From an uncultured Gammaproteobacteria bacterium (lineage in GTDB: Bacteria; Pseudomonadota; Gammaproteobacteria; UBA9214), in the NCBI GenBank assembly GCA_965544015.1, contig CBEULV010000001.1:1-43200 (forward strand): a stretch of DNA of 43,200 nt, in the 5' to 3' direction. The notes under the pieces are model-generated. The model was not told the DNA's origin. It did no database searches and was given only the letters and a program-made list of their open reading frames with translations. Numbering within the stretch: the first letter of the stretch is position 1; each line of letters starts with the position of its first letter. The translations under genes were made by a program, and so were the position numbers. Below, in pieces: positions 4,151-43,200 of this stretch.

Positions 4151-4167
4151 GGGTGGCTCCGGGCGGA

Positions 4168-5169: not shown

Positions 5170-5678
5170 TACCTTGTCACCAGGCGGAAACAGCGAAAAT
5201 CGGTTGTCGACAGCGGCGGGCAGTTGAAGGTGCTGGTTCCCGCGTCGCGTGATTCGTTCCAGTAGACCGTCACGACATGCGTGGTCCTGCCGTCCACCAC
5301 CGGGCAGGCCGGCACCGTGGTCGGCGTGCACTGGGTGATTTCACTCTGTCCATTCGGCAGACGGGCCACGTTGGTGCGCCACTCGCTGATATCGGTCTCC
5401 GCCATGGTCGTCGGGAGGGTGGTAGCGTCGGTGGCCCTGGCAATCACATATTCATTATTGGCCACACCGGCCGGGTTAACGCGCATACGGTCGGTGATGT
5501 CATAGGCAAACTGAGTGACCAGTGTGCGCATGCTCGCCATCTGGTTGGAGCGCAGGCCGGTGGTCTGCAGTGCCGCCAGTCCGAGCAGGCCGATCGACAG
5601 CACCAGCAGTGCAATCAGTACTTCCAGCAGGGTGAAGCCGTGCTGGCGGGTTGCGTGTCTGTGTTTGTGTGTCAGCAT
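5169..5678 (-). CDS. pilV: Type IV pilus minor pilin PilV
   Basis: 169 aa. N-terminal prepilin motif RQHGFTLLEVLIALLVLSIGLLG. Operon position between fimU and pilW. Confidence 0.8.
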   Translation of the reverse strand: MLTHKHRHATRQHGFTLLEVLIALLVLSIGLLGLAALQTTGLRSNQMASMRTLVTQFAYDITDRMRVNPAGVANNEYVIARATDATTLPTTMAETDISEWRTNVARLPNGQSEITQCTPTTVPACPVVDGRTTHVVTVYWNESRDAGTSTFNCPPLSTTDFRCFRLVTR

Positions 5679-5691
5679 GGTCAGGGTTCCG

Positions 5692-8129: not shown

Positions 8130-8205
8130 GCCGGAGTAGCTCAGTCGGTAGAGCAGCTCACTCGTAATGAGAAGGTCGGGGGTTCAATTCCTCTCTCCGG
8201 CACCA
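8130..8205 (+). tRNA. tRNA-Thr (anticodon CGU)
   Basis: 76-nt cloverleaf read by hand. Acceptor stem GCCGGAG/CTCCGGC, D-arm GCTCAGTCGGTAGAGC, anticodon loop CTCGTAA (CGT), T-arm GGGGGTTCAATTCCTCT, encoded 3' CCA. Confidence 0.9.
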
Positions 8206-8283: not shown

Positions 8284-8853
8284 TTAGGTGTCCGGGGTGC
8301 AGTCGGAAATATTACCTGCAAACAGCCTGGGGATTCCGTTACTGGTGACCTGGATCTGCTTGCCATGGTCAGTGCCGCGATCATCGCACAGCGACATGAC
8401 TGCCATTCCACCCTCGTTGGTTGAACCGTCCGGGTTTATCTCAAGGTTATTGTCCCAGATGCCATTGGTGCGAAGTCTGACATCCGTATCGCTGGGCATG
8501 CCCCTGCGTAACAGGACGTCGGTACCGGCGTCGTAGGAATTGTTCAGGTACCTGCCATCATCGGCAAAAATGATGTAGCCGGTGCTCCAGTCATAGCTGG
8601 TGCCACCACAGACAGGTACTGGTGCCTCCACGGTATTGCTGCGACATAGAATTACGCGCACACCGCGCTTGACCGCTTCACTGCGCGCGAAGTGGACATC
8701 CGTTACTACATGATTCAGATGTGTGACCAGCTTGTTGTCCCGGATCAAATCGCTGACGCTGGGTACGGCCAGTGACAGGATGATCGAAATAATACCCAGT
8801 GTGATCAGGATTTCGGGGAGCGTGAATCCACGGAGTTTGTTGTAGTCTGTCAT
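8284..8853 (-). CDS. fimT: GspH/FimT-family minor pilin (FimT-like), monocistronic
   Basis: 189 aa. Prepilin motif LRGFTLPEILITLGIISIILSLAVP followed by VVTDVHFARSEAVKRG, paralogous to the 5692-6243 product. Confidence 0.7.
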   Translation of the reverse strand: MTDYNKLRGFTLPEILITLGIISIILSLAVPSVSDLIRDNKLVTHLNHVVTDVHFARSEAVKRGVRVILCRSNTVEAPVPVCGGTSYDWSTGYIIFADDGRYLNNSYDAGTDVLLRRGMPSDTDVRLRTNGIWDNNLEINPDGSTNEGGMAVMSLCDDRGTDHGKQIQVTSNGIPRLFAGNISDCTPDT

Positions 8854-8966
8854 GACTGTTGCCGTTGCGTTGAAAATAACAAGATCGTATAGCCGCGTTA
8901 TCGACGCGTTACAGGGGAAACTGTAATCGGCAAGGGTAGTTTTCTCAGCAACTCCGAGGCCCGGGA

Positions 8967-9815
8967 TTATTTCGGTGGGCTGGTAAATTTCATAGATAAA
9001 TCAATTGCCTGTATGTTTTTTGTCAGGCTGCCAATGGATATACAATCAACGCCGGTACTGGCGGTGGCGCGCAGGTTATCCAGGGTGTAGCCACCGGAGG
9101 CCTCCAGTTCTGCGCGTCCGGCAACCTGTGCCACTGCATCGGTCAGTTGCTCGAGGGTGAAATTGTCCAGCAGCAGCCGCGTGGCCCCGGCCTCCAGTGC
9201 CTCCGCGATCTGTTCGCTGCGCTCGACTTCCACCTCGATCATCCTGCCGCTGGAGGCTGCAGCCGCCTGGCTGACTGCCGCGCGGATCGAGCCGGCCGCC
9301 TGGATGTGATTCTCCTTGATCAGGATACCGTCATACAGCCCGCTGCGGTGGTTATGGCAACCGCCGGTGCGTACCGCGTATTTCTGTGCCTGGCGCAGCC
9401 CCGGAATGGTCTTGCGGGTATCGAGTATCCGGACCGGCAATCCGGCCACGCAGTCGGCATAGCGACGCGCCAGTGTTGCGGTTGCCGAGAGTGTCTGCAG
9501 GAAGTTGAGTGCGGTACGCTCGCCGCTCAGGATGGCCCGTGCCGGACCGCGTACACTGCACAGGACCTGGTCAGCCACGATGCGCTCGCCGTCATGCCGT
9601 TGCCAGTCGACGTGGATGTCCGTGTCGAGTTCGGCGAATACCGCGTTGAACCACGCCATGCCGCACAATACGGCGGGCTCGCGCGAGATGACGCTGGCGT
9701 AAGCCTGTTGCGTTGCCGGTATCAGTGCGGCGGTGATATCGCCACTGCCGATGTCTTCTGCGAGTGCGGTGCGTACCGACTGCAGCAGCGGTTCTTCAAG
9801 GACCTCGATCAGCAT
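8967..9815 (-). CDS. nadC: Nicotinate-nucleotide diphosphorylase (quinolinate phosphoribosyltransferase)
   Basis: 282 aa. Contains LAEDIGSGDITA, ERTALNFLQTLS, ILDTRKTIPGLR, KYAVRTGGCHNHR and LIKENHI, all characteristic NadC blocks. Confidence 0.9.
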   Translation of the reverse strand: MLIEVLEEPLLQSVRTALAEDIGSGDITAALIPATQQAYASVISREPAVLCGMAWFNAVFAELDTDIHVDWQRHDGERIVADQVLCSVRGPARAILSGERTALNFLQTLSATATLARRYADCVAGLPVRILDTRKTIPGLRQAQKYAVRTGGCHNHRSGLYDGILIKENHIQAAGSIRAAVSQAAAASSGRMIEVEVERSEQIAEALEAGATRLLLDNFTLEQLTDAVAQVAGRAELEASGGYTLDNLRATASTGVDCISIGSLTKNIQAIDLSMKFTSPPK

Positions 9816-10166
9816 TCAGGTGGAGATTTCAAGCAACTCGATTTCAAAGGTCAGGGTGGCGTCGGGCGGGATTACGCCAGCGGCGCCCTGTGCGCCGTAA
9901 CCCAGTTCGGAGGGAATCACCAGGCGTCGAATGCCACCGACCTGCATGCCCTTGACCCCTTCATCCCAGCCGGGAATGACAAAACCGCAGTCAACCGGGA
10001 AACTGAACGGGTCGTTACGGTCGTGGCTGGAGTCAAACTTGGTTTCATCTTCCAGCCAGCCTGTATAGTGCACGATGACGGTCTGGCCGCGCCCGGTTAC
10101 GGTCTCGCCTTCGCCTGTCTTGATGTCGCTATAGCGCAGGCCTGATGCTGTGGTGATTTCCGTCAT
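9816..10166 (-). CDS. FKBP-type peptidyl-prolyl cis-trans isomerase
   Basis: 116 aa. Contains VHYTGWLEDETKFDSS, FVIPGWDEGVKGMQVGGIRRLVIP and LTFEIELL. Its stop abuts the nadC start. Confidence 0.9.
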   Translation of the reverse strand: MTEITTASGLRYSDIKTGEGETVTGRGQTVIVHYTGWLEDETKFDSSHDRNDPFSFPVDCGFVIPGWDEGVKGMQVGGIRRLVIPSELGYGAQGAAGVIPPDATLTFEIELLEIST

Positions 10167-10199
10167 GGTCTGTTCCTCTTGCCTTGTTGTCAGTTTATC

Positions 10200-11561
10200 T
10201 CAGTCGTTTCCTGTGCCGGAAAAATAATCATCCTTGAGTTTTTTCACCAGTCCTGCGAGCAATAGCAGTCCGAGCAGGTTGGGCAGTGCCATTAATATAT
10301 TGGTGATATCAGCGATATTCCAGACCAGTTGCAGCGGCACGGTTGCGCCAACCACCACCAGTACGGTATAGACCACCCGGTAGGGCAGCACGGCGCGTTC
10401 GCCAAACAGGAAATAGGCGGAACGGTCCCCGTAGTAGGACCAGGCAATGATGGTGGAATAGGCAAACAAGGTCAGTCCGCCACCAACCACCCAGGCGCCG
10501 GCATCGCCCAGTGAACCATCGAATGCGTGCGCGGTGAGCGCTGCGCCCATCAGTGCATCAGTGCTTTCCTGCCAGGCACCGGTAACCACGATCACCAGCC
10601 CGGTCATGGTACAGATCACCAGGGTGTCGATGAATGGTTCCATCATGGCGACCAGGCCCTCGCGTACCGGCTCGTTGGTGCGCGCGGCTGCGTGTGCCAT
10701 GGGTGAGGAGCCAAGGCCGGCTTCGTTGGAGAACAGCCCGCGTGCAACGCCCCAGCGTATCGCCTCGCCAACCGCGGCGCCCCCCACCGACCAGGGGTTG
10801 AGCGCCATGTTGAAAATGGTGGAGAAGGCCGCCGGAATATCGGCGGCATGATTGATCAGCACCAGCAGGGCGGCAATGAGATAGGTCGTCGCCATAAAGG
10901 GGACAATGGTGCTGGCCACGCGTGCGATGCGTTTTACGCCACCCAGGATCACCATCCCCACCAGGATTGCCAGCAGGCAGCCGACGAACCATTTGTAGTC
11001 ATGCAGTTGCGGGAAGATGTAGCCGAGTCCATCCATGACCGAGTTGGCCTGTACCATGTTGCCGATGCCGAAAGAGGCAACCAGTGCGAAGATGGCGAAG
11101 CAGGCCGCCGTGCGCTTCATGTCCAGGCCATGTAACAAGGTGTACATCGGGCCGCCCGCCACCTCGCCATTCGGGGCGATCTTGCGGAACTTGACCGCCA
11201 GCGTGCACTCGGTGAACTTGGTGGCCATGCCGAAGACGGCCGTGACCCACATCCAGAACAGGGCGCCGGGCCCGCCCAGTGAAATTGCCGTGGCCACACC
11301 GGCAATGTTGCCGGTGCCAACGGTTGCCGACAGCGCGGTGGACAGGGCCTGGTAATGGCTGACCTCGCCGGCATCCGTGCGACAGCTGTACTTGCCGGAT
11401 ATCACCTCGATGGCATGGCTGAATCCACGTAGCTGGATCAGGCCCATGCGGATAGTCAGGTACAGGCCGGTGCCGAGCAGGGCGAGCAGGGTCAGTGGAT
11501 TGCTCCACAGCAGCCCGGAGAGTTTGCCGGTCAGATCAGTCAATAACTGGACAAATTCCAT
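10200..11561 (-). CDS. Alanine/glycine:cation symporter (AGCS family)
   Basis: 453 aa polytopic membrane protein. Contains GEVSHYQALSTALSATVGTGNIAGVATAI, GGPGALFWMW and FSNEAGLGSSPMAHAAA, typical of sodium:alanine symporters. Confidence 0.9.
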   Translation of the reverse strand: MEFVQLLTDLTGKLSGLLWSNPLTLLALLGTGLYLTIRMGLIQLRGFSHAIEVISGKYSCRTDAGEVSHYQALSTALSATVGTGNIAGVATAISLGGPGALFWMWVTAVFGMATKFTECTLAVKFRKIAPNGEVAGGPMYTLLHGLDMKRTAACFAIFALVASFGIGNMVQANSVMDGLGYIFPQLHDYKWFVGCLLAILVGMVILGGVKRIARVASTIVPFMATTYLIAALLVLINHAADIPAAFSTIFNMALNPWSVGGAAVGEAIRWGVARGLFSNEAGLGSSPMAHAAARTNEPVREGLVAMMEPFIDTLVICTMTGLVIVVTGAWQESTDALMGAALTAHAFDGSLGDAGAWVVGGGLTLFAYSTIIAWSYYGDRSAYFLFGERAVLPYRVVYTVLVVVGATVPLQLVWNIADITNILMALPNLLGLLLLAGLVKKLKDDYFSGTGND

Positions 11562-11614
11562 GCATTAACTCCCCGGTGCATTGGCAGTACCTGTTACAGG
11601 CCTGTGCCGGACGG

Positions 11615-12517
11615 TCAGCTGAGCAGTAATTCCAGCAGGGCCTTTTGTGCGTGCAGGCGGTTCTCCGCTTCATCCCAGACAACGCTTTGCGCGCCGTCGA
11701 TCACGTCAGCCGAGACCTCTTCGTCACGGTGCGCGGGCAGGCAGTGCATGAACAGGGCATCCGCTGCCGCGGCCTGCATGACCTGTGTATTCACCTGGTA
11801 GCCGGCAAATGCGCGCACACGCCTTTCCTGTTCCTGTTCCTGTCCCATGCTGGCCCAGACATCGGTGACTACCAGGTCGGCGTCCCTTGCCGCGGCCTGT
11901 GCAGAATCAAGCATAACGGTCTGCTCGCCTGCGGCGGCCAGGATATCTGCATCCGGCAGGTAACCGTCCGGGCAGGCAATGTTCAGTGTGAAGCCGAACT
12001 GGCGTGCTGCGTTGATATAGGAATGGCACATGTTGTTGCCGTCACCGATCCAGGCAACGGTCCGCCCACGGATGTCGCCGCGGTGCTCGTAATACGTCTG
12101 CATGTCGGCCAGCAACTGGCAGGGGTGGTACAGGTCGGTGAGCGCATTGATCACCGGGACGCTGGAATACTCGGCAAAGCGTTCGATTTTCTCGTGTTCG
12201 AAGGTGCGGATCATGATGATATCCGACATGCGCGACAGCACGCGTGCACTGTCCTCGATGGGCTCGCCACGGCCCAGCTGGGTATCCCGCGGAGACAGGA
12301 AGATGGCATGGCCACCGAGTTGTGCCATGCCGACTTCAAACGACATGCGGGTGCGGGTCGAGGATTTTTCGAACACCATAGCCAGCACACGGTGTTTGAA
12401 GGGTTCAAACAGTTTGCCGGCCCTGTTAAGGGCCTTTAACTCAATAGCGCGCAGTACCAGCCGGTTGAGTTCGTCCGGGGTCAGGTCCAGCAATGTCAGG
12501 AAATGCCTGCTACTCAT
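11615..12517 (-). CDS. argF: Ornithine carbamoyltransferase
   Basis: Motifs [20 protein letters not shown] and [11 protein letters not shown]. Start moved to [12 protein letters not shown] (ATG 12517) with GGAG about 11 nt upstream. The track start at 12544 would overlap argD. Confidence 0.9.
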
Positions 12518-22697: not shown

Positions 22698-22838
22698 ATC
22701 GCGCTTGTTGTGTTTCGGGTACCACCGTTCTCTTCAGTATTCAGCGGGGCGGCGTCAATATGGGTATTCGAAGCCGGTAATCAACGACCGGAACCGGCGG
22801 CAAGCAAGCCGGGATTCCGCCACAACCATCATGGATCC

Positions 22839-23831
22839 ATGAAAGACGCTGACAAGAAACGCCTGCTAAGAGAGATGCTGTTTGCGCGCCGCTTCGAAGA
22901 GCGCTGCTATGAGGCTTACGTGGAACGCAATATTGGTGGTTTTCTCCACCTGTATCCCGGTGAGGAGGCTTGCGCACATGGCGTGCTGGAAGCGGCCCGG
23001 GTCGGGCACGATTACGTGATCACCAGCTATCGTGATCACGTCCACGCCATCAAGTCCGGTTCCGACCCGCGCGCGGTGATGGCGGAACTGTTCTCCAAAG
23101 AGACCGGCGTCAGCAAGGGACGTGGCGGTTCCATGCACATCTTCGATGTGAAGCACCGCTTCATGGGTGGCTATGCACTGGTCGGTGGGCCGTTCCCGCT
23201 CGCTGCCGGTATTGCCAAGGCGATCCGGCTGCAGGGCGGTGACGAGATCTGTATCTGTTTCCTCGGTGATGCGGCCAACAACCAGGGGACGTTTCACGAA
23301 TCGCTTAACATGGCTGCATTGTGGAATTTGCCGGTGTTGTATGTGTGTGAGAATAACCTGTATGGCATCGGTACCCGCATCGATCGTTCCACCGCCGTGG
23401 TCGACCAGTACAAGCGCGTGGCGGCCTACAATATTCCCTCGGCGCAGGAGAACGGACAGGATGTCGAACTGGTCCACAAGGCGGCCGTCAAGGCCATCAA
23501 GCACGTGCGCAGTGGCAAGGGACCGTACTTCCTGGAACTGATGACCTATCGATACCGGGGTCACTCCATGTCCGACTCCAATGCCTATCGTGCCAGGACC
23601 GAGGAACGCATGTGGAGCAAGCGTGACCCGGTCATCATGCTGCGTGATCGGCTGATCGATGCCGGCAAGCTGACACTGAAGGAATTCAAGGATATGGACA
23701 CCAAAATCCTTGACGAGATCGAGGACGAGGTAATCCGGTTCGCTGCCGAATCCCCCGAGCCGCACATCGCGGATGTGGAGAAATACGTGCTGGCCGAGAA
23801 TGACCCATGGGTCAGGGGTGGGGCAGGATAA
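22839..23831 (+). CDS. pdhA: 2-oxoacid (pyruvate/acetoin-type) dehydrogenase E1 component, alpha subunit (TPP-binding)
   Basis: Contains FEERCYEAYVERNIGGFLHLYPGEEA and GDAANNQGTFHESLNMAALWNLPVLYVCENNLYGIGT. Start moved to MKDADKKRLL (ATG 22839). The 43 upstream codons of the track ORF look non-coding. The stop overlaps the pdhB start (TAATG). Confidence 0.85.
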   Translation: MKDADKKRLLREMLFARRFEERCYEAYVERNIGGFLHLYPGEEACAHGVLEAARVGHDYVITSYRDHVHAIKSGSDPRAVMAELFSKETGVSKGRGGSMHIFDVKHRFMGGYALVGGPFPLAAGIAKAIRLQGGDEICICFLGDAANNQGTFHESLNMAALWNLPVLYVCENNLYGIGTRIDRSTAVVDQYKRVAAYNIPSAQENGQDVELVHKAAVKAIKHVRSGKGPYFLELMTYRYRGHSMSDSNAYRARTEERMWSKRDPVIMLRDRLIDAGKLTLKEFKDMDTKILDEIEDEVIRFAAESPEPHIADVEKYVLAENDPWVRGGAG

Positions 23832-24811
23832 TGGCCGAGATTATGGTATGGGAGGCCATCCTGCGCGCCCATGACGAGGAACTTGCCAATGATCCCATGG
23901 TAATTGCCATGGGTGAGGATATCGGTGTAGTTGGCGGCACCTACAAGGCCACCCTTGGCTTGCATGACAAGTACGGTGAGGAGCGCATCATCGACACACC
24001 GATTTCCGAGAATGGCTTTACCGGTCTCGGTATCGGCGCATCCTTTCTCGGTGTGCGGCCGATCATTGAAATCATGTCGGTGAATTTTTCCTGGCTGGCG
24101 ATGGACCAGATGTTCAATACCGCCGCCAAGGTGCGCTACATGTCCGGTGGCCAGCTGCAGGCGCCGATCGTGGTGCGCTCGCCTGGCGGTACTGCCCATC
24201 AGCTTGGCTCACAGCATTCCGCGCGCATGGAGAAGGTATTCATGGGTATTGCCGGTCTGCGCGTGGTCACTCCGTCCAATCCGCGCCAGGCCTACGGGTT
24301 GCTGAAGTCCGCGGTGCGTTGTAATGACCCGGTGTTCATTTATGAACATGAACTCATGTACAACATGAAGGGCACGGTGCCGGAAGAGGAATATTTTCAC
24401 CCGCTGGAAGGTTCCGAGGTTGCACGTGAGGGACGTGATATCACGCTGTTTGGCTATAACATATCGGTGCACTGGTGTTTGCAGGCGGCGGAACTGCTGT
24501 CGAAATATCATGGTATCGAGGCGGAGGTGGTCGATCTGTATGCATTGAGCCCGCTCGACCGTGCCGGTATCCGTAACTCGGTCAGCAAGACGCATCGTGC
24601 CGTCATCGTGGAAGAGGCCGAGCCGGCCGTGGGTGTCGGAGCGGAAGTGATGGCAATCATCAATGAGGAATGTTTTTTTGAGCTGGACGCCGCTCCGGTG
24701 CGCGTGTCTGCGCTGAACGTGCCGATTCCATACAACCACGCGTTGGAAAAGACAGCGTTGCCGGATGCAAATAATGTAGTCGAGGCCGTGCGCAAGATAT
24801 TTGGTATTTAG
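23831..24811 (+). CDS. pdhB: 2-oxoacid dehydrogenase E1 component, beta subunit
   Basis: Contains MAEIMVWEAILRAHDEEL, IDTPISENGFTGLGIGASFLGVRPI and SPGGTAHQLGSQHS. The start at 23831 is coupled to the pdhA stop. Confidence 0.9.
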   Translation: MAEIMVWEAILRAHDEELANDPMVIAMGEDIGVVGGTYKATLGLHDKYGEERIIDTPISENGFTGLGIGASFLGVRPIIEIMSVNFSWLAMDQMFNTAAKVRYMSGGQLQAPIVVRSPGGTAHQLGSQHSARMEKVFMGIAGLRVVTPSNPRQAYGLLKSAVRCNDPVFIYEHELMYNMKGTVPEEEYFHPLEGSEVAREGRDITLFGYNISVHWCLQAAELLSKYHGIEAEVVDLYALSPLDRAGIRNSVSKTHRAVIVEEAEPAVGVGAEVMAIINEECFFELDAAPVRVSALNVPIPYNHALEKTALPDANNVVEAVRKIFGI

Positions 24812-24935: not shown

Positions 24936-27581
24936 ATGGCTGAACCCTATGTAATCAAGATGCCCCAGCTCTCCGACACCATGACGGAAGGTGTCATTGT
25001 CAGCTGGGAAAAGAATATTGGTGACGCGGTCAAGCGCGGCGACATCGTGGCCACGGTCGAAACCGATAAGGCCGTGATGGACGTGGAAGTATTCCGTGAC
25101 GGCTATCTTTCCGGGCCGGCTGCGCCTGTCGACGCCGTGGTGCCGGTCACGCATCCGATTGCCTACCTGGTGGAAGAAAAAGCCGATGTTGACGACAGCG
25201 AGGCAAAGGCTGTCGTACAGTCCGTGGCCGAGACCACGGCCCGGGCAGCTGCCACGGCTGCTACATCCGCAATACCCGCGCCAGTGCCGGGTAGCGCACC
25301 CATGCCACGGCCACAGGGTAACAAGGCTTCGCCGCTGGCGCGCAGACTGGCGACGGAAACGGGTACCGATATTGATCGCATCAGCGGTTCCGGCCCGGGC
25401 GGCGTGGTGACGGCGTCAGATGTGCAGCGTGCCCCGGCACCATTTGAAGTTGCCGTGCCCGGTAATGGTCGTCCGATGAAATCCATGGAAAAGGCGATTT
25501 CGCGTGCCATGGCTTCCTCGATCTCGATGCCGACTTTCCGGGTTACCTCGCATATCCACCTGGAAGGCCTGATCAGCGCAGCCAAGGCCGCCGGTATTTC
25601 GGTGACCGTGGCAATAGCCAAGGCCTGCGGACAGGCCATTGCCAGCCATCCGAAGATGAACTGGTGCTACCAGCCGGATGACAAGCTGATCGAGCGCAGC
25701 CAGGTAGACATCGGCATGGCGGTGGCAGCCGATGACGGCGGACTGGTGGTGCCGATCCTGCGTGATTGTGAAACACGCGAGTTGCCCGAGTTGAACACGG
25801 ACTGGAAGGACCTGGTGGCGCGGGCGCGCAGCCGGCACCTCAACCCGGAGGAATTCACCGGCGCGACATTCCAGATTTCCAATATGGGCATGTTCGATAT
25901 CAGTTACTTCGATGCCATCGCCACGCCGGGCCTGGCCGCGATCCTGGCGATCTCGTCGAACACGGAGAAGGGCAGTGCATTTACCATTACGGCCGACCAT
26001 CGCGTCGTCAACGGCGCCGATGTTGCGCTGTTCCTGAGTACCCTCAAGGAACTTGTCCAGCAACCGGCCGACTGGATGGGGCCGGGTGGCCAGGCCATCC
26101 CGGAAGGCGACTGGGACTATGATGTGGTCGTCATCGGCGGCGGACCGGGGGGCGAAGACTGCGCGCGCGACCTGGTGGCACACCGGCTGAAGGTCGCGCT
26201 GGTCAACGATGCACCGTTCCCGGGTGGCGAGTGCCTGTGGCGCGGTTGTATTCCGTCCAAGGCCTGGCGTGCCGCGGCCGACCGCATGCGTGATCGCGCC
26301 GGCGACGCGCAGCTTGGCGTGACCGGCACCGACAAAGCGAAGCTGGTATGGAAAGACCTCGAACAACATCGCCGCAAGGTGCTGGAGACACGGGGCGAGA
26401 TGGCGCTCAAGACCGACAAGGGTGTGCGCATCGACTATCTGCAGGGATTTGGCCAGTTTGTGGATGCACACACACTGGCTATTAATACGTCTACCAACAG
26501 CAACGACCCGCATGCACGTGCACGGATACCGGAAGACAGGGCCGGAAAGGCCGTTACCTTCGGCTGCGCGGTGATCGCCACCGGTGCGCCGCCATTTGTT
26601 CCGCCGATTCCCGGTGCACAGGAAGGACTCGACAGTGGTGGTGTGCTGACCTCCGATACCGTATGGGCGCTGGATGCGCCACCGAAGAAACTTGCTGTTA
26701 TCGGTGGTGGTGCGATCGGCGTCGAGATGGCGCAGATCTTTCATGACTTTGGCGCCCGTGTCACGCTGCTGGAGGCGCAAGCGCGCATCCTTGCCGAGGT
26801 CGAGCCGGAGATCGCGAAAACCACGGCCGGGATCCTTGCCGATGAAGCGCGACTGGATGTGCTGACTGGCGCCGCAGTCAATAAAATCAGCGGTACGCCA
26901 GGGGCCATGAAGCTGGCCTATACCGATGCCGATGGCAAGAAGCGTAAGCTCACCGTGGATTACGTCATCATGGCAACCGGCAAGCGGCCGGTGCTGACCG
27001 GTCTCAATCTGGAAGCCGCCGGTGTTGCCAGTGAGCGCAGCATCGTCACGGCCGACAGCCGTTGTCGTACCAGTGTGCCGCATATCTTTGCCGTGGGTGA
27101 TGTGATTGGTGGCTTGATGCTTGCGCATACCGCGGCACAGCAGGGGCGGGTTGCGGCGGCAACTATCCTGGGCGAGAACATGCAGTATGACCAGAGCAAG
27201 GACTGTGGTGTGATCTTCTCGCGTCCGCAGGCAGCCTTCGTCGGCCTGTCCGTTGAACAGGCAAAGGCGCGGGGCATGGATGTGGCCGAGGTGAAGGTGC
27301 CGATGAACATCGACGCCAAGGCAATGATCAACAATGAAACGCATGGCATGATCAAGATTGTGGCGGACAAGGCAACGCACCGCGTGGTGGGTGTGCACTT
27401 CCTGGCCGATCATGCCGACACGCTGATCGGCGAGGCGGTCATGATGGTTGCAGCCGACATGACACTGGAGCAGGTGGGCGAGGCGATCCATCCGCACCCG
27501 ACCCAGACCGAACTGTTTGGTGACATGGCGCGACGCCTGCTGTCACGCCTGCGTCGCAGCAAGAAAAGGGCAAAGGCATAA
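24936..27581 (+). CDS. Fused E2-E3: lipoyl domain + E3/E1-binding domain + acyltransferase catalytic domain + dihydrolipoyl dehydrogenase
   Basis: Single 881-aa ORF. Lipoyl domain with [11 protein letters not shown] (Lys45). Ala/Pro linker. PSBD segment [32 protein letters not shown]. Catalytic core ending [10 protein letters not shown]...[11 protein letters not shown] (about aa 381). Then [17 protein letters not shown], the redox disulfide [13 protein letters not shown], the NAD fold [13 protein letters not shown] and the C-terminal HPHPTQTE, all typical of E3. Confidence 0.85.
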
Positions 27582-35370: not shown

Positions 35371-38300
35371 CTATTGCAGTGCCATTTGTGTAATCAGAAT
35401 CAGGTCCTGAATATTGATTACACCGTCCGGGGCGCCGGACGGGTACAGGTCGCCATGCTGCAGCAGATGATTGTCTACCGGGATCAGGCCCAGCACGGCG
35501 CGAGTGAGAACCCAGAGATCACCCGCATTTACTGCATTGTCCAGGGTGCCGGGCGGGAGCGGTGCCACATCACCGTCGTTGAAGTTGAACGCCAGCGGTA
35601 TCGGGTCGACCGGGTCGAGCAGGCCGTCGCCATCGGTGTCCGCGCTGGCAGGATTCAGATCGGCGCCCGGTGTGTAGCTGTTCGGGTCACCGTCCCAGGC
35701 CACCTCCTCGAAGTCGGTCAGTCCGTCACCGTCGGTGTCAATGAGTATGGTGCTGGAGCCGGCTGACTGTTCCAGCAGGTCACTCAGTCCATCGTTGTCA
35801 TCATCCAGGTCACAGGCGTCGCCACTGCCGTCGGTGTCGGTGTCCAGCTGAGTGGCGTTGGCGATGGTCGGGCAGTTGTCGCAGGCATCGCCGGGACCGT
35901 CACCATCCTGGTCGGTCTGGCTCAGGTTGGCATCAATTGGGCAGTTGTCGTCCAGATTAAATATGGTGTCCTCGTCGGCATCGATCGCTATACGCTCACC
36001 GTCACCGACGGGTACAGCCGTGTAGGTTAGTGTCTCGCCGGTTGCTAACACCTGGTCACGTATAAAGGCCTCCGACAGGTCGCCCAGCGCGATACTGTCC
36101 ATCCTGAACAGCCCGCTGGAAACGCGCACCGCACCACGCTGCAAGCTCCCAAGGTTGCCCTTGATGATCACATCACAGTCGCCGGCCGCCGCGCGCGCCA
36201 CCAGCAGGTCGGCACGGGTCGCGGCGATTGAGGGGCTGCTGCTCACGGTCACCTGCTGGCCGACCACCGGTTTCAGATTGGAGTCGAAGGCGAGCATGAA
36301 TTGTTCGACATCACGGCGATGCTCGTCCGGTGTTTTCTGGTTCTCGATAATGAAATTGGCGCTGGTATCGAAGCCGAACAAGGAGGCATTAAAAAACCGG
36401 AACAGCGTATCGGTGCTGCCGTCATGCAGGAACCCGAAACCACGGATCTGGTCACCCTGTGGCCCATTGTTGCCGGTATTGAAGAACGGCAGGTCCGGCA
36501 TGCCGAACATGCCGACCTTGGCATACATGTTGCGCAGGTGGGGGACCTTGAAATGCTGCGGCTCACCCTCGAAGCTGGACAGCCCGCTGGTGCCGAAGAA
36601 GCCATTGGTGGTATCCAGTACGTGGCAACCGTTGCAGGTGGTCACTATGTCGGAGACATGGTTGAAATAGAAATCACGACCGTCACTCTGGCTGGTTGTA
36701 AGGGAATTATTCAGGTTGCGGATCGGGTTGGGTGGCAGGGCGACCTGCAGGATGAAGTCGGTGTACTGGTCCATTTCCGCTGTCGTCAGCGGCCCGCTGC
36801 GGCCCAGCAGCCCCTCGAAGGCCACATTGAACTTGCTGAACGAGAGTCGCTCGTTGTAAGCGCCTGTTCGGTTCACTATATCGTTGGGTTCATCGTTGCC
36901 GCCGGTACGGTCGCCGCGCCAGTGCATGGAGCCATGGGTGTCCATGCCGCGCAGTGTTTGTGTGGTCATCGGTCCCTTCATGGGGTGGAAGTCCTGTCCC
37001 CCACCGGTCGGACTCGGATCCAGCGGGTTGGTGAGGATCGAGCCGGTGGGGTCGCCGAGGTCCCAGGCCAGGCTGTCGAGGTCGCCATCGACGTGGCAGC
37101 TGGCGCAGGCCGCCTCGCCGTTGCTGGAGGTGAAGCTCGCGTCATACAGGAAGCGGCGTCCGGTGATGAGGTCCGGCGGCTCCGGATTGTGCAGCAGGTA
37201 ATGCGCAGCTTCCGTCCGGTTAGTGAGATCGAGGATCGATACGCCGTTATCGAAACGCGTGGTCACATAGAGGCGATTGCGGGCTTCATCCAGCAACAGG
37301 CCGGCGGGGCCACCGCCACTGACCGCGATGTGGTCGGCGCTGTCCGGCACGAAGGTGTTGTCCTCGATGTCAGCACTTAAAAAGATGCCGACCTTGTCGG
37401 ACCCCTTGGCGGCCAAATAGAGCGTGCTGCCGTTGCTGGAGATTGCCAGTTGGCGCGGCAGCGCCAGGCTCTTGTCGGCCACACCGGCCGGTGCCGGTGA
37501 CACACTGTAATCGATGTGCTTGTTGATATGGCGTGGTGTCACCGTGTCGGAGCCGGTATCGATGACGGTGATGCGCGTTTCATGCTGGTGGCCTATCACC
37601 GAGCTGGTGGTGTCGGTCGGCGTACGCGTGCCTTCGAAGCGCACTTCGTTGATGGCCTCGGTGTTGACGACAAACAGCTTGCCGTTTACCGGGTGTACCG
37701 CGATATTATAGAGAACAGTGCCGACACCGCTATAGAAGGCCGTTTCCACCGGCGGGTTGGCCAGTGCATCGATCGCGAACACATCCTTGTCCGGCAGGTC
37801 GAAGCGGACCAGCCCGTCCCACAGCCGGCCTAGTTCATCAACCCAGTTGCTGCCATTGTGCCTGACGATCAGTCCCACTTCCGGCTGCAGTGAATTGTCC
37901 GAGTCCACGTTCGGCGCCGGCAGGCCACCGGGTGCCGTGGCACCATCGACTGTACAACTTGGCGCAGTTGCACCGCCGTTACAGACGGCTTCGCCATGGA
38001 TGGTGGTGGTCCTGTTGCCGGAGTGATAGATCCCGGCATACACGGTGCTGCCGTCAGGTGAAACCGCCAGTGGCCGCGGCGTATCACCAAACAGCGTAAC
38101 AATGGTGAGAGGTGTACCACCCAGCGCACCGCCCAGCGTTGTGGCATCGAATACCCACACATCGGCACGGCCGATACCGGGCGTGGTGGCTTCACCGGGG
38201 TTCCCCGGGGTCACGCACTTGCTATCGCTGCTGTCACCGCACCAGGGACTGTTCTGACCGCGGTGCGCGGTTGTAATGAAGGCACGGTTGCCGCCCGGCC

Positions 38301-38709
38301 CGGCAAAGACGATATCGCGGGGTTCGTCGCCCACCAGCAGGGTGCGGGTGATGCGCGGTGGGGAGAGCGACACATCGATGATACTGATGGAGTCGGACAG
38401 GTGGTTAACCACCCAGACCTCATTGTCATTGCGCAATGCCACGGCAACCGGTTCCATTCCGGTCGGAATGGAAGTGGTGAGCGTCAATCCGAAACTGTCG
38501 ACCGAGAAGACCTCGAGCAGGTTGTCGGGCGTGTTGACGACATAGAGGCGGTCACCAGTGGAAGACATGGCCAGCGGGCGCACATGGCCACTTTCGAAAG
38601 CGGTAAATGCGGCGTGTGCTGTTGCCTGCAGCAGTAACAGCAGGATCGCGACAAGGCATCGGTCGATTGCAGACAGAGGGTGTCGGTTGGTGTTAAATCC
38701 GGGTTTCAT
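35371..38709 (-). CDS. Large secreted multidomain protein: beta-propeller + di-heme cytochrome c peroxidase-like domain + TSP type-3 Ca-binding repeats + dockerin-like C-terminus
   Basis: 1112 aa. Signal peptide ...LLLLLQATAHA/AF. Repeated YVVNT / LFVVNT / LYVTT strand motifs (aa 40-500). CASCH at nt 37093-37107 and CNGCH at nt 36622-36636, plus FKVPHLRNMYAK, a CCP/MauG-like block. DxDxDGxxDxCD repeats at aa 920-1035. The tandem segments GDVAPL...AGDLWVLTRAVLG and GDLYPSGAPDGVINIQDLILITQMAL look dockerin-like. Confidence 0.8.
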   Translation of the reverse strand: MKPGFNTNRHPLSAIDRCLVAILLLLLQATAHAAFTAFESGHVRPLAMSSTGDRLYVVNTPDNLLEVFSVDSFGLTLTTSIPTGMEPVAVALRNDNEVWVVNHLSDSISIIDVSLSPPRITRTLLVGDEPRDIVFAGPGGNRAFITTAHRGQNSPWCGDSSDSKCVTPGNPGEATTPGIGRADVWVFDATTLGGALGGTPLTIVTLFGDTPRPLAVSPDGSTVYAGIYHSGNRTTTIHGEAVCNGGATAPSCTVDGATAPGGLPAPNVDSDNSLQPEVGLIVRHNGSNWVDELGRLWDGLVRFDLPDKDVFAIDALANPPVETAFYSGVGTVLYNIAVHPVNGKLFVVNTEAINEVRFEGTRTPTDTTSSVIGHQHETRITVIDTGSDTVTPRHINKHIDYSVSPAPAGVADKSLALPRQLAISSNGSTLYLAAKGSDKVGIFLSADIEDNTFVPDSADHIAVSGGGPAGLLLDEARNRLYVTTRFDNGVSILDLTNRTEAAHYLLHNPEPPDLITGRRFLYDASFTSSNGEAACASCHVDGDLDSLAWDLGDPTGSILTNPLDPSPTGGGQDFHPMKGPMTTQTLRGMDTHGSMHWRGDRTGGNDEPNDIVNRTGAYNERLSFSKFNVAFEGLLGRSGPLTTAEMDQYTDFILQVALPPNPIRNLNNSLTTSQSDGRDFYFNHVSDIVTTCNGCHVLDTTNGFFGTSGLSSFEGEPQHFKVPHLRNMYAKVGMFGMPDLPFFNTGNNGPQGDQIRGFGFLHDGSTDTLFRFFNASLFGFDTSANFIIENQKTPDEHRRDVEQFMLAFDSNLKPVVGQQVTVSSSPSIAATRADLLVARAAAGDCDVIIKGNLGSLQRGAVRVSSGLFRMDSIALGDLSEAFIRDQVLATGETLTYTAVPVGDGERIAIDADEDTIFNLDDNCPIDANLSQTDQDGDGPGDACDNCPTIANATQLDTDTDGSGDACDLDDDNDGLSDLLEQSAGSSTILIDTDGDGLTDFEEVAWDGDPNSYTPGADLNPASADTDGDGLLDPVDPIPLAFNFNDGDVAPLPPGTLDNAVNAGDLWVLTRAVLGLIPVDNHLLQHGDLYPSGAPDGVINIQDLILITQMALQ

Positions 38710-38866
38710 GGGTCAGTTGTTGTTATCTGGCTATGCCGTGTTTGATTAAAGCATATCCCGATCATGCCATTTAACCAAACGTTGAAGTGTCTCCTTTATA
38801 ACACCATGAACATAGAGCAGTTATTTGCAGCTAGCCAGTGACGCCAGCAGGTGTTCGGAAATATTT

Positions 38867-40396
38867 TCAGGAGTTTTGCAGGGTCTGACTTTCCGCTGTT
38901 ACATCGGGATGCAGTTCGCTAAGTGGCACCGAGAGCCCGTTATTGCCTACCACCCGTGCATGGAAGCGTTTCAGTTCGCGCGGTTCCTTTACGCCGCAGG
39001 AGTGCGCGATGATGCCGACTTCGTAGACCATGTTTTTTGCATAGTGTGCAACGCGGACTGCCTTGTGTTCGGGATTCAGACCGCGTTGCAGGCGTTTGTT
39101 GTGCGTGGTGATGCCGGTTGGGCAGGTATTCCTGTTGCATTGCAGGGCCTGAATACAACCGAGTGCAAACATGAAGCCGCGTGCGGAAACTATGAAGTCG
39201 GCACCCATGCACAGGGCCCATGCTACGTCTGCCGGTGTGACAAGCTTGCCGGAGGCGATGATCTTGATGCGCTCGCGCAATCCATACTCGTTGAGTTTGT
39301 CGATCAGCAACGGCAGACTCTCGCGCAATGGCAGGCCGACATCATCGATCAGCGGCATTGGCGCGGCGCCGGTGCCGCCGTCTGCGCTGTCCACGGTGAT
39401 GAAATCCGGTGCGCATTCGCTGCCGCGTTCGTTGATCTCCGTGAACAAGCCGTCCAGCCAGCCGTAGGCGCCGATGACGGCCTTGAAGCCAACCGGCTTG
39501 CCGGTGACCTTGCGTACCCGGTGGATGACATCGAGCAGCTCGCTGTTGGAATTGATGTCCAGGTGCCGGTTCGGGCTGATGGCATCGCAGCCTGCCTCGA
39601 TACCACGGATTTTTGCAATCTCCTCGGTGACCTTGATGCCGGGCAGGATACCGCCCTTGCCGGGCTTGGCGCCCTGGCTCAGCTTTATCTCGAACATGCG
39701 CACGGCGTCATGGGCCGCGGTCTCTCGCAGCTTGTCATCGTTCAGGTTGCCCTCCCGGTCGCGCACACCGTTCTTGGCGGTACCAATCTGAAACACGATG
39801 TCGGCACCACCCTCGAGATGGTAGGGCGACAGACCACCCTCACCGGTATTCATCCAGCAGCCGGCCTTGTTGGCGCCATGCGAGAGTGCCAGTATCGCCG
39901 GCTTCGAGATGGCGCCGTAACTCATGCCGGAAATATTGAACAGGGAACTGGTCGTGTAGGGCGTTGCACAGTGCGGTCCGATTGTCACGCTGCGTGGCGG
40001 GACGGCGTCCTGCCCAAGGGTGGGAAAGGGGCAATTCACGAACAGTACCGTCCCGACCGGGCGCAGGTCACGGGTGGAGCCGAAGCCTACGGTGTTGTCG
40101 ATATTCTTGGCGGCGCGGTAGACCCATGTTCGCTGGGCCCGATTAAAGGGCATCTCTTCGCGGTCCATGGCGAAGAAATACTGGCGGAAGAAACTGCCAA
40201 GATGCTCGAAGAAATAGCGGAAGTGACCGACCACAGGGTAATTGCGCCGGATCGCACTTTTGGTCTGGGTAATGTCGAGAATGAAGGTGACAACGACGAC
40301 GAGTACGCCTATCCCGATCAGCACCACGAACAGGGTTGCCATGATGTCCATGACCGCGGTGACCAGCGAGAATGTTTCTGCTGAGGTCATGTCCAT
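38867..40396 (-). CDS. Membrane-anchored FMN-binding glutamate synthase-family (GltB domain 2-like) protein
   Basis: 509 aa. N-terminal TM segment IMATLFVVLIGIGVLVVVVTFIL. Contains ISGMSYGAIS, NTGEGGLSP, EIKLSQGAKPGKGGILPG, VDSADGGTGAAP and ASGKLVTPADVAWALCMGADF, typical of the Glu_synthase FMN domain. Confidence 0.85.
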   Translation of the reverse strand: MDMTSAETFSLVTAVMDIMATLFVVLIGIGVLVVVVTFILDITQTKSAIRRNYPVVGHFRYFFEHLGSFFRQYFFAMDREEMPFNRAQRTWVYRAAKNIDNTVGFGSTRDLRPVGTVLFVNCPFPTLGQDAVPPRSVTIGPHCATPYTTSSLFNISGMSYGAISKPAILALSHGANKAGCWMNTGEGGLSPYHLEGGADIVFQIGTAKNGVRDREGNLNDDKLRETAAHDAVRMFEIKLSQGAKPGKGGILPGIKVTEEIAKIRGIEAGCDAISPNRHLDINSNSELLDVIHRVRKVTGKPVGFKAVIGAYGWLDGLFTEINERGSECAPDFITVDSADGGTGAAPMPLIDDVGLPLRESLPLLIDKLNEYGLRERIKIIASGKLVTPADVAWALCMGADFIVSARGFMFALGCIQALQCNRNTCPTGITTHNKRLQRGLNPEHKAVRVAHYAKNMVYEVGIIAHSCGVKEPRELKRFHARVVGNNGLSVPLSELHPDVTAESQTLQNS

Positions 40397-40438
40397 GCCC
40401 CGTGCTTGTCTGTAACCGGCTTGCTATAGTCTGGCAGT

Positions 40439-41044
40439 TCAACAACTACCAGTGGTTCTCCAGCGTCGTGCGATCCAGTAATCCAGGCTGAAGTATCTGC
40501 CAGCACCTATGAAGAACAGTGCCAGTAACATGATGAAATAGGTGGCGGCAAACTCGATGCCGTTCTTCAGGATGGTGATGCTGCCGGCCTCGGTCAGCCA
40601 TTCGTAGTTGGCGTGTTCACGCAGGATTTCCCTGGCCTTCTCCTTGCGGATGCTGGCCTCCTCGATCAGGTCCGTGCGCCATTCCCATGGTACCGTCAAA
40701 TCTGTCTCCGGCAAGACATGCCAGCCGTTCTCCCAATGTGCGGTGGTGGCGGCAACGAACATGGTAAACATCAGTGGAATGGCAAACCAGCGTACCGCAA
40801 AGCCGCCGAGCAGCGCGATACCGCCCAGCAGTTCTGTCAGTGCGGCGACATAGACCATGATCTCGGGTGCCGGGATGCCAAGCGAGGCAAAGTAGGGGCC
40901 GAGGTCTTCCGCGTATGCCAGCTTGTTGGAACCAGCCATGATGAGAATCGGCGCAAGGTAGATGCGCAGAGCCAGCGGTGCCAGGAAATCGATAGCACGG
41001 CTACGGTCCAGCAGGCCCTGCAGGCAATTCAGTAATCGGATCAT
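40439..41044 (-). CDS. DoxX-family membrane protein of the MNIO operon
   Basis: Start at MIRLLNCLQGLL (ATG 41044); the track start at 41170 would overlap the upstream gene. Contains LAPLALRIYLAPILIMAGSNKL and ELLGGIALLGGFAVRW. A soluble insert of about 60 aa lies between hydrophobic segments. Confidence 0.8.
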   Translation of the reverse strand: MIRLLNCLQGLLDRSRAIDFLAPLALRIYLAPILIMAGSNKLAYAEDLGPYFASLGIPAPEIMVYVAALTELLGGIALLGGFAVRWFAIPLMFTMFVAATTAHWENGWHVLPETDLTVPWEWRTDLIEEASIRKEKAREILREHANYEWLTEAGSITILKNGIEFAATYFIMLLALFFIGAGRYFSLDYWIARRWRTTGSC

Positions 41045-41093
41045 AACGCCCCCTTGTTGGTGATTCGTATGCTGGAGATTATATCGAGTGGCT

Positions 41094-41876
41094 CTACTGC
41101 CGCCTTGTTCCGATAACGATCGATTTTTTCCTGAGATTGTCCAGAATTTCCGCGCCGCCACTGACCACAACCTCAGGCTGCGGGTGGGACAACTCCCCGG
41201 CGATCTGTAGCAGCAACTTGCGTCCGCTGGCTATATCCGATGTCTCCAGCAGTTCCAGCAGTCGCTTGGTGACCGGGTTGATTTCCATGAAACCAACTTC
41301 ATCCTCATTGTCGCGGTAAACCACCAGGAAAGTGGGGATCCTGTCCTCAGGGCCGGGCAGAAAGTCCGGACCGATCCTGTGTACCGGGTATTGATAGGCC
41401 AGGTGCCAGGCCAGTGGCGACAGCACCGGTATCCCGTCTAACAGGTCCCCGGTGGTATCGATGTCGTCATAATTCAGCGTGTCGTCTGCAACGGAGACAG
41501 CCAGTTCCGCCCATTCGTAGTGGGCCAGGTCATACAGAAAGGGCAGGTCATCTTCCCGGGCGGTGCGTTCCTCGTGTAGCCAGTTGAGAAATTCGCGGGG
41601 GATTTCAAGGAATAGTGGTGTGCGCGACAGGTGCGAGGAGAAATAATCCCGTACCAGCGCATGCCAGGCATCATCGTCGTAAATTTTCCTCAGTACCGGG
41701 AATGTGTTGGATAGAAAACTTTCGACATTGTTGTAGAACAGCTCACGGTAGATCGCCATGCGCCGGTCTTCCACATCTCCGGGTGCCGGCTGATGTTCGG
41801 GGTCACGGATATGCGCGGCAAATTCGTATTGCCGGCGAATGAATTCAGGCCTGTTTTCCATGCGAGATGTCGCCAT
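41094..41876 (-). CDS. DUF2063-family protein (MbnC/HvfC/BufC-type partner of the MNIO enzyme)
   Basis: 255-260 aa. Contains [52 protein letters not shown] and LAHYEWAE, characteristic of DUF2063. Overlaps the MNIO gene 3' end by 32 nt (ATG 41876) or 17 nt (ATG 41861). Confidence 0.8.
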
Positions 41877-42708
41877 GTTCGTTGCCCCATTTGTCCTGCA
41901 GCGAGGCGATCTGGCCTACCTCGCCAAGCAACTCCGGTAGTGGCGGGATGTTGAAGTCACGCTCCAGCAGGGTAGGGACCACGCCGAAATGCGCATAGGC
42001 CTTTTCCAGTAGCGCCCATACCGGGTCGATAATCGGTGCGCCGTGCGTATCTACCTTCAGATCATCGGCCTCGTCATAGTGGCCGGCGATGTGGAAGTAT
42101 GCCACACGTTCGGCTGGCAATGATTTCAGGAAGGTCTCTGCATCATAGCCATGGTTGATGCTGTTCACGTAGATATTGTTGACGTCCAGCAACAGGTCAC
42201 AGTCGGCCTCTGCGAGTACCGCGTTGATAAACTCGATTTCGTCCATCTCCTTGCCCGGTGCTGCATAGTAGGAGACATTTTCCATGGCGATACGACGTTC
42301 CAGGATGTCCTGTACGCGCCGTATGCGCGCGGCTACATAGTGTACCGCTTCCCCGGTGAACGGGATCGGCATCAGGTCATAGAGATGACCGTCATCGCTG
42401 CAGTAGCTCAGGTGTTCGGAGTAATAGCGGAAGTTGTGTTCGTCCAGCAACTTCCTGACACGGTGCAGGAAGGTCTCGTCCAGCGGGGCCGGGCTACCGA
42501 TGGAGAGTGACAGGCCGTGTGCCACGAACGGATAGCGCTCGGTGAAGTAACGGAGCTGCTTGCCGAGTTTGCCACCTACACCTATCCAGTTCTCGGGGGC
42601 AACCTCGAAAAAATCAACAGTATCCGGCGGGTTGTCCCGCAGCGGACCCATCAGGGTCCGCCGCAGGCCAAGTCCGGATCCTTCAACAGGATAGTTTGAT
42701 GAAGCCAC
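41845..42708 (-). CDS. DUF692 / MbnB-like multinuclear non-heme iron oxidative enzyme (MNIO)
   Basis: 287 aa with a GTG start. Contains [70 protein letters not shown] and PTLLERD, the TIM-barrel metal-ligand blocks of DUF692. Starts 15 nt after the precursor stop. Confidence 0.85.
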
Positions 42709-42723
42709 GACAGTGTTTACTGC

Positions 42724-43185
42724 CTACTTCTGGGCGCCGCATTTACCTTCGCCGCACTTGCCTTCCTTGTCGGCCTTCTTCTCGGCACCACATTTTCCTT
42801 CCATTGCTTTCATTTCACTGGCATCGAGCACGCCATCGCCATTTTTGTCCCTCTTGATGAACATGGCCTCGTGTGCTGCATTGAACTCGTCCCTGGTGAT
42901 CTTGCCATCGCCGTCGGCATCCATCATTTCCATGCCGCACTTGCCTTCACCGCACTTGCCTTCACCGGCAGCCTTCTTCTCGCCGCCACACTTGCCTTCT
43001 GCGCCTGCCTTCTTCTCGCCACCGCACTTGCCTTCAGCCATCTCGGCAACCATGTAACCGCTGGACAAATCGGACATGGCAAACGGGTTTTCCGCTGCGT
43101 TGGCAACGCTGGTGCCGGCCAGGGACGTCACGAAGGCAGCACCCATTGCAATGGCCAGCGGCTTGAGAGTTGATTTTTTTGACAT
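42724..43185 (-). CDS. Secreted EGKCG-repeat protein with central EF-hand pair; predicted MNIO substrate (HvfA/bufferin-like RiPP precursor)
   Basis: 153 aa. Sec signal MSKKSTLKPLAIAMGAAFVTSLAGTSVANA/AE. Seven exact EGKCG units (Cys54, 66, 78, 83, 132, 144, 149 are the only cysteines). EF-hand loops DADGDGKITRDE and DKNGDGVLDASE. Confidence 0.8.
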   Translation of the reverse strand: MSKKSTLKPLAIAMGAAFVTSLAGTSVANAAENPFAMSDLSSGYMVAEMAEGKCGGEKKAGAEGKCGGEKKAAGEGKCGEGKCGMEMMDADGDGKITRDEFNAAHEAMFIKRDKNGDGVLDASEMKAMEGKCGAEKKADKEGKCGEGKCGAQK

Positions 43186-43190
43186 TGATA

Positions 43191-43196
43191 TGTCTC
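43191..43196 (-). promoter_or_regulatory. Shine-Dalgarno sequence of the precursor gene
   Basis: The reverse complement reads AGGAGA, followed by a 7-nt spacer and the ATG at 43185. Confidence 0.55.
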
Positions 43197-43200
43197 CTAG

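Follow-up and report, generated by a model that had tools for sequence, protein, structure and literature searches.

A compact four-gene operon at the end of a 43,200-nucleotide (nt) window of contig CBEULV010000001.1, from an uncultured gammaproteobacterium, raises the question of which metal its small, repeat-bearing secreted product serves: copper, calcium, or both. The operon (minus strand, 40439-43185) encodes a precursor protein, the multinuclear non-haem iron oxidase (MNIO) HvfB, its partner HvfC, and the DoxX-family protein HvfX. The locus is a standard member of the HvfABCX ('oxazolin'/captophorin) operon family, a system already known and curated, and as a textbook Hvf-type operon it adds nothing new on MNIO chemistry. 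Its unusual point is a predicted calcium-binding EF-hand pair placed amid the EGKCG repeats of the precursor. From its sequence, we consider it likely that the locus is an HvfABCX-type operon for a protein made by the ribosome and modified after translation (RiPP), with an EfhP-like EGKCG/EF-hand chimaera as the substrate, whose product would be modified, exported, and loaded with both Cu(I) and Ca2+.

The four genes are close-packed, and checks of the open reading frames (ORFs) and their translations bear out every structural statement of an earlier note that a model had made from the letters of the window. The note had described a Sec-signal precursor of 153 residues with cysteines solely in seven EGKCG units, a DUF692 gene with its metal-ligand blocks 15 nt further on, a DUF2063 gene overlapping the latter by 17-32 nt, and a DoxX gene behind it. 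The longer hvfC/hvfB overlap applies when hvfC is read from its first ATG and the shorter one from the second; hvfX starts 49 nt past the hvfC stop, preceded by AAGGGGG, a good match to a ribosome-binding site. The family assignments held as well, since profile searches for DUF692, DUF2063, and DoxX were all positive above the curated NCBIfam cut-offs. HvfB scores 449 bits against the HvfB-family MNIO maturase model (NF003818, cut-off 360) and aligns to PF05114 over profile positions 2-262 of 263 (358 bits). HvfC reaches 318 bits with the model of the partner that carries the RiPP recognition element (NF050145, cut-off 142) and matches the Neisseria gonorrhoeae structure 3DEE (1.7e-10), while HvfX scores 188 bits with the DoxX-type model NF050144 (cut-off 80); its 201-residue product is on record, as an exact match, as a called gene. 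The precursor itself contains the HvfA-family KCGExKCG repeat domain (NF050137; 55 bits, cut-off 19.5) in three stretches. Competing assignments fell short of their cut-offs, among them ApyH (83 bits against 400) and ChrH (54 bits against 600). Bufferin sensu stricto was rejected, as BufB NF050167 gives 276 bits against 310; the precursor yields no DUF2282 match.

HvfB is intact in its iron-site motifs. The best structure match of HvfB is the Histophilus somni DUF692 protein 3BWW (3.2e-77), and its residues were mapped to the MNIO iron sites through the 3BWW alignment and the literature. HvfB contains the blocks HGLSLS (H64), SEHLS (H99), MENVSYY (E143), LDVNN (D175/N177-178), FHIAGH (H206/H210), VDTHG (D220/H222), and LERD (E249). 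The N/D/H triplet that is essential in HvfB (10.64898/2026.07.17.739211) is retained. In HvfX, residues 17-39, 61-100, and 161-187 are hydrophobic, whereas HvfB and HvfC have no such segment. This distribution fits modification in the cytoplasm followed by export of the precursor. As a point of annotation, many HvfB homologues in the databases are listed 19 residues shorter (269 residues, starting at the equivalent of M20). As the alignment to the family profile begins at residue 11 and homologues of 288 residues keep the N-terminus, the GTG at 42708 is the better start for hvfB, and many of the family's gene calls in public databases are probably truncated.

The operon is conserved as a unit. 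The closest relatives of HvfB come from metagenome-assembled genomes of uncultured Gammaproteobacteria (80-97% identity; one labelled Thiohalobacterales), and five related contigs (L001, L002, L009, L010, and L011) were compared. The order precursor-MNIO-HvfC is kept in all five, directly after rnfABCDGE-nth, and DoxX follows in four, being missing in L009. Across the loci examined, the precursor-to-MNIO gaps measure 12-76 nt, and the MNIO/HvfC overlap is kept in the relatives at 8-35 nt. Directly after the operon, L009 encodes a 1147-residue multicopper oxidase with bacterial thrombospondin type-3 repeats (8435-11878) and L011 an HMA/P-type ATPase of the CopA type (8862-11570); these neighbours fit a copper role, as circumstantial evidence. 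In L010, AhpC/TSA and purT genes come after the operon, as they do further downstream in the window.

What the maturation proteins would act on can be read from the precursor. Each of its seven cysteines (Cys54, 66, 78, 83, 132, 144, and 149) lies within an exact EGKCG, split four and three around the EF-hand pair, and the array is visible even in the DNA as 15-nt and 36-nt tandem units, far beyond chance. Cys78/83 and Cys144/149 form two EGKCGEGKCG doublets, and the other three units stand isolated as EGKCGxEKK. The related FonBC pair requires a unit whose fourth residue is cysteine and whose fifth is small, and it rejects proline (PMC13097082); as all seven units read E-G-K-C-G exactly, they satisfy these substrate rules. 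Ahead of the repeats are a predicted Sec signal peptide, of a kind whose cleavage was seen in HvfA (PMC11252979) and is predicted in EfhP (PMC9132961), and a leader motif. In an alignment of 56 homologues, N33, P34, F35, G43, and Y44 of the leader are invariant or nearly so, and the motif recurs in 107 of the 120 closest precursor homologues (90% clustering level) as well as in HvfA-type precursors that lack EF-hands. This leader is the likely docking region for the recognition domain of HvfC.

A different reading would leave the cysteines unmodified, as thiolate ligands or disulfides of a metallothionein or redox sensor, with MNIO and HvfC serving another substrate. Modification of the EF-hand members is so far predicted, which leaves room for this view, but the order precursor-MNIO-HvfC is strict in every locus examined, the units are exact substrate motifs, and no other small cysteine-rich ORF adjoins hvfB. 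We therefore hold it to be very unlikely that the cysteines stay unmodified.

Between the two cassettes lies the EF-hand pair. Its loops, DADGDGKITRDE and DKNGDGVLDASE, are both canonical, and Pfam recognizes them in the precursor as EF-hand_5 (1.4e-10) and EF-hand_1 (2.1e-10). The loops are 12 residues apart and flanked by methionine-rich stretches, with Cys83 6 residues ahead of loop I and Cys132 8 residues past loop II. In the 56-homologue alignment, ligand positions 1, 3, 5, and 12 are conserved in both loops, and D89, G94, E100, D113, and E124 are invariant. The methionine clusters beside the loops are conserved too (GMxMMD... and ...MK(M)MxEGKCG), and methionine averages 8.9% in the mature parts of the homologues. 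An AlphaFold2 model of the precursor has a mean predicted local distance difference test score of 53.5, rising to about 81 over residues 90-120; the EF module alone is confident and the EGKCG stretches are disordered, as reported for the class. This module bears on the earlier prediction of a periplasmic, heterocyclised copper-binding protein. That prediction fits the family literature (PMC11252979, PMC13097082, PMC11626156), but it missed the EF-hand pair, and copper is half of the predicted function.

The two-sided layout, with two loops and cysteines on both sides, occurs in 112 of the 120 closest of roughly 5,700 homologues, and all 112 keep an inter-loop spacing of 12. A search of a representative library, in whose results 87 of 150 proteins were unrelated multi-EF-hand proteins and which serves only as a rough census of architectures, gave 26 two-sided representatives with KCG and EF loops at 50% identity, against 6 with the cysteines C-terminal only and 5 with them N-terminal only. 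The two-sided EGKCG/EF-hand layout is thus common in metagenomes and not an oddity of one contig, and the locus offers a clean, compact example of a precursor subclass abundant in environmental Gammaproteobacteria. The signal peptide and the NPFAMSELSSGYMVAE leader are shared by HvfA-type precursors that have no EF-hands, which makes the EF pair look like an insert in an ordinary repeat array.

The best relatives of the EF region in the PDB are the lanmodulins 6MI5 (E = 1.7e-8) and 8FNS (about 2e-8), so that the module could be suspected of binding lanthanides or another hard metal rather than Ca2+. Lanmodulin shares the compact arrangement of close EF loops, 12-13 residues apart in 6MI5, to which the invariant spacing of the 112 homologues corresponds, and there is a weak match to the NCBIfam LanM model. 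This match (NF053806) reaches 34.2 bits against a cut-off of 135, however, and the precursor has two loops, not four. The hallmark of lanmodulin is a proline at EF loop position 2; the loops here begin with DADGDG and DKNGDG, and neither has it. No XoxF or lanthanide genes occur among the window ORFs scanned. Lanthanide binding by the module is accordingly extremely improbable, and Ca2+ the expected ligand.

Proteins that combine EGKCG units with EF-hands have been described before. A genomic survey gathered about 2,000 Buf_EGKCG/oxazolin precursors and defined a second precursor type, in which a short N-terminal EGKCG domain is followed by two EF-hand_5 domains, with EfhP (PA4107) of Pseudomonas aeruginosa as the example (PMC12452194). 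The earlier note thus overstated the novelty: the family is curated, its members are counted in thousands, and EF-hand chimaeras are described in the same work. The EF-hand fusion is on record already, as are this type of system and its chemistry, and the published description of the EfhP-type class does not mention the two-sided form (PMC12452194). EfhP is predicted to be periplasmic and binds Ca2+ with a dissociation constant of 13.7 µM (PMC9132961).

For a direct comparison, the efhP locus of P. paraeruginosa (L003) was used. EfhP and the precursor are of similar length (155 and 153 residues) and 40% identical over 110 residues; EfhP likewise has a signal-like N-terminus and four N-terminal EGKCG units, followed by two canonical EF loops. 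The genes adjacent to efhP encode an MNIO and an HvfC that are 64% and 37% identical, respectively, to those of the locus. In both cases, an N-terminal signal or transmembrane segment, EGKCG units, and two EF loops lie upstream of MNIO and DUF2063 genes, as defines an EfhP-type chimaera. In contrast, EfhP has no cysteine after its EF-hands and 15 residues between its loops, where the precursor has 12, and it lacks the extra three-unit cassette C-terminal to the EF pair. The precursor therefore departs from the strict EfhP-type architecture, in which EGKCG is N-terminal only and the EF-hands are C-terminal. Moreover, the DoxX-like gene of L003 lies on the opposite strand, unlike hvfX here.

This likeness supports the main rival explanation, namely that the product serves mainly to sense Ca2+ in the periplasm, in the manner of P. 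aeruginosa EfhP, through a conformational change induced by Ca2+ and through signalling. Its EGKCG units, whether modified or not, would be accessory and serve, for example, copper or iron tuning of the sensor or the anchoring of partners. The EF loops are canonical and conserved, the similarities of EfhP and its adjoining MNIO are substantial, and one proposal for EfhP is dual Ca/Fe sensing by way of its EGKCG cysteines (10.1101/2024.01.09.574892). Yet the cysteine units outnumber the EF loops by 7:2 and flank them on either side, the three genes dedicated to maturation are conserved, and copper genes adjoin the operon in some relatives. Further, the close relationship to EF-less precursors with the same leader suggests that the EF-hands were inserted into a metallophore scaffold. 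A predominantly sensory role is unlikely on this balance, with appreciable weight still attached to it, and it is compatible with our preferred explanation of a modified protein that binds both metals.

The copper half of this explanation draws on characterised relatives. In nontypeable Haemophilus influenzae (NTHi), HvfB and HvfC oxidise six HvfA cysteines of AEGKCGEGKCG by 4 Da each, and the product binds copper (PMC11252979). The modification was first described as oxazolone/thioamide and has since been reassigned to 5-thiooxazole (10.64898/2026.06.05.730506; PMC13097082). Conversion of every EGKCG cysteine to a 5-thiooxazole has been shown for HvfA, fontiphorin, and gonophorin, as has copper binding by the products; in homologues the conversion is marked by -4 Da per cysteine and a band at about 302-305 nm. 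The name 'captophorins' covers oxazolin, fontiphorin, gonophorin, and the bufferins (PMC13097082). The NTHi hvfABCX operon encodes the same four protein families, with the locus members all above the NCBIfam Hvf cut-offs: a Sec-signal EGKCG precursor, an MNIO and a recognition-element partner that are both needed for cysteine oxidation, and a DoxX protein. HvfA differs in its 95 residues, three AEGKCGEGKCG motifs, N-terminal disulfide, and lack of an EF-hand, and the NTHi doxX (NTHI1440) lies at the opposite end of the operon, unlike hvfX. The fontiphorin (FonABC), gonophorin (Ngo), and bufferin (BufABC) clusters also pair MNIO and DUF2063 genes and place 5-thiooxazoles on signal-bearing, cysteine-rich precursors that bind copper (PMC13097082, PMC11626156), and DoxX often co-occurs with them, as in the locus. 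Bufferin precursors are DUF2282 or Buf_6/12Cys proteins, however, and not EGKCG repeats, and in contrast to the precursor studied here, none of the characterised captophorins has an EF-hand.

Methanobactin is a more distant parallel. MbnABC likewise uses an MNIO-superfamily enzyme and a partner to turn cysteine into a copper-binding heterocycle, and since related MNIO products bind copper (PMC11252979), the operon might make a secreted chalkophore that is released, scavenges copper, and is re-imported. Methanobactin differs in its oxazolone/thioamide modification, in being a small, leader-cleaved, exported peptide, and in its dedicated import and export genes. The product here would be a protein of 123 residues that contains a folded domain and carries a Sec signal. 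The MbnB equivalog model (TIGR04159) gives 52.9 bits against 325. The 36 window ORFs that were scanned include no mbn-type gene and, in agreement with the earlier note, neither a TonB receptor nor a MATE exporter. Neither in these ORFs nor among the listed neighbours of the relatives was a TonB-dependent receptor, a MATE exporter, an aminotransferase of the MbnN type, or a protease found. A chalkophore role, which the earlier note had already thought less likely, is thus highly improbable, and retention of the modified protein in the periplasm is favoured.

Possible steps from gene to metal-loaded product can be outlined. The precursor would be made in the cytoplasm, where HvfC, via its recognition element and in a heterodimer with HvfB, may bind the unfolded chain, probably through the NPFxMSxLSSGY region. 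HvfB and O2 would then perform four-electron oxidations of up to seven EGKCG cysteines to 5-thiooxazoles, at -4 Da each, and the still-flexible protein would leave through Sec, with the signal cut after ANA. In the periplasm, the thiooxazole sulfur and nitrogen donors, together with the flanking methionines, could bind Cu(I), so that copper is buffered or handed on; the central EF-hand pair would bind two Ca2+ and fold, and HvfX (DoxX) would act as a membrane accessory. What the locus itself shows is its set of genes, the families to which they belong, the intactness of their motifs, and their conservation and synteny; the modification chemistry, copper binding, and Ca2+ binding have been shown in homologues. 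By analogy with the latter, the product of the locus may bind copper and calcium and may couple the two.

Several points weigh against this explanation. The case for the locus is non-experimental, modification and copper binding are so far predictions for every member with EF-hands, and the MNIO partners of EfhP were absent from its purification. Although it belongs to the family, the precursor is not an orthologue of HvfA, as the HvfA (NTHI1441) equivalog NF050188 scores 37.5 bits against 95 and aligns to the C-terminal repeats alone. Its N-terminus may be an uncleaved membrane anchor, as predicted for the class (PMC12452194). The single units (Cys54, 66, and 132) may be poorer substrates, and a FonA peptide with one repeat was left unprocessed in vitro (PMC13097082). 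Among the window ORFs scanned there is no copper-homeostasis gene, and the neighbours are housekeeping genes. Finally, the contig does not include the operon promoter: just 15 nt of the window precede the precursor ATG, and as a sigma-70 scan of 38600-43200 gave no match, the promoter must lie beyond 43200, where the earlier note had placed it.

The relatives extend beyond this limit. Their spacers between nth and the precursor gene are poorly conserved save for one element, GAAACTT-N15-GTCnnA, some 100 nt upstream of the precursor start codon. The pattern AACTTN{14,16}GTCNNA has exactly one match per locus in all five, always at this spacer site. In the 43-kb window it has 0 matches, with 0.41 expected by chance, and the equivalent region lies beyond 43200. 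The element resembles the promoter consensus of RpoE/AlgU-type extracytoplasmic function (ECF) sigma factors. If it is such a promoter, the operon would be under envelope-stress control. L003 lacks this sigma-E-like motif upstream of efhP, and a literature search on AlgU control of efhP returned nothing usable.

A bolder extension, which we regard as a long shot, would make the EF pair a Ca2+-operated clamp: periplasmic folding could join both thiooxazole cassettes, whose Cys83 and Cys132 lie close to the loops and beside conserved methionine clusters, into one composite Cu(I) site. Ca2+ would then gate a copper buffer or sensor in the two-sided subclass, perhaps with control of the envelope-stress (sigma-E) type. 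At the low Ca2+ of the cytoplasm, the apo form would stay unfolded and hence modifiable and exportable by Sec. Such a protein bears on the coupling of Ca2+ and copper binding in the bacterial periplasm, and on whether EfhP-type 'calcium sensors' are MNIO-modified copper proteins, a question raised earlier (PMC12452194).

Features of the operon and its surroundings, with the conserved upstream element of the related contigs
Feature	Position	Strand	Details
Precursor gene (HvfA-family/EfhP-like)	42724..43185	-	153 aa; AGGAG 8 nt 5' of ATG
Predicted Sec signal peptide, aa 1-30	43096..43185	-	MSKKSTLK n-region; hydrophobic 19-mer, residues 10-28; ANA|AE cleavage site likely
Leader motif NPFAMSDLSSGYMVAE, aa 33-48	43042..43089	-	Conserved in homologues
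N-terminal EGKCG cassette, aa 51-84	42934..43035	-	EGKCG at 51, 63, 75, 80; Cys54, 66, 78, 83; predicted 5-thiooxazole sites
EF-hand pair, aa 85-128	42802..42933	-	Loop I D89-E100 (42886-42921); loop II D113-E124 (42814-42849)
C-terminal EGKCG cassette, aa 129-150	42736..42801	-	Cys132, 144, 149; predicted 5-thiooxazole sites
hvfB, MNIO/DUF692	41845..42708	-	287 aa; GTG start 15 nt past precursor stop
hvfC, DUF2063/PME-type-1 partner with RiPP recognition element	41094..41876	-	260 aa; NF050145, PF09836 + PF22106 (NGO1945_C)
hvfX, DoxX-family membrane protein	40439..41044	-	201 aa; NF050144, PF07681
Membrane-anchored FMN-binding glutamate-synthase-domain protein	38867..40396	-	PF01645 1.1e-86; 42 nt 3' of hvfX
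GAAACTT-N15-GTCnnA element	L001 7884-7909; L002 7885-7910; L009 5888-5913; L010 5888-5913; L011 5886-5911		Upstream of precursor genes

The gene behind hvfX encodes a protein with an N-terminal hydrophobic segment (residues 7-49). No terminator-like site was found between it and hvfX, and within 38600-43200 the only terminator-like match falls within the precursor gene and on the wrong strand. Co-transcription with the operon may occur, and the gene is not a core part of it: a PF01645 neighbour after DoxX is present in L002 and not in L001, L009, L010, or L011. Further along the minus strand, 35371-38709 encodes a secreted protein of 1112 residues that has repeats of the beta-propeller and thrombospondin type-3 kinds and two CxxCH motifs resembling haem-binding sites (CASCH and CNGCH); its similarity to hydrazine-synthase beta/gamma subunits and YncE is weak and below threshold.

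Two features elsewhere in the window are unrelated to the operon. Rfam and tRNA scans returned a tRNA-Thr(CGT) at 8130-8205 (plus strand) as the only hit, with no regulatory RNA, and minor pilins of a type IV pilus (PilX, PilW, and GspH/FimT-like) are encoded in a cluster at 3545-6243 (minus strand). The window also has a 2-oxoacid dehydrogenase cluster, which comprises separate E1 alpha and beta genes (22710-23831 and 23807-24811), followed on the plus strand by an 881-residue protein (24936-27581) in which E2 (lipoyl, E3-binding, and acyltransferase domains) and E3 (dihydrolipoamide dehydrogenase) are apparently fused.

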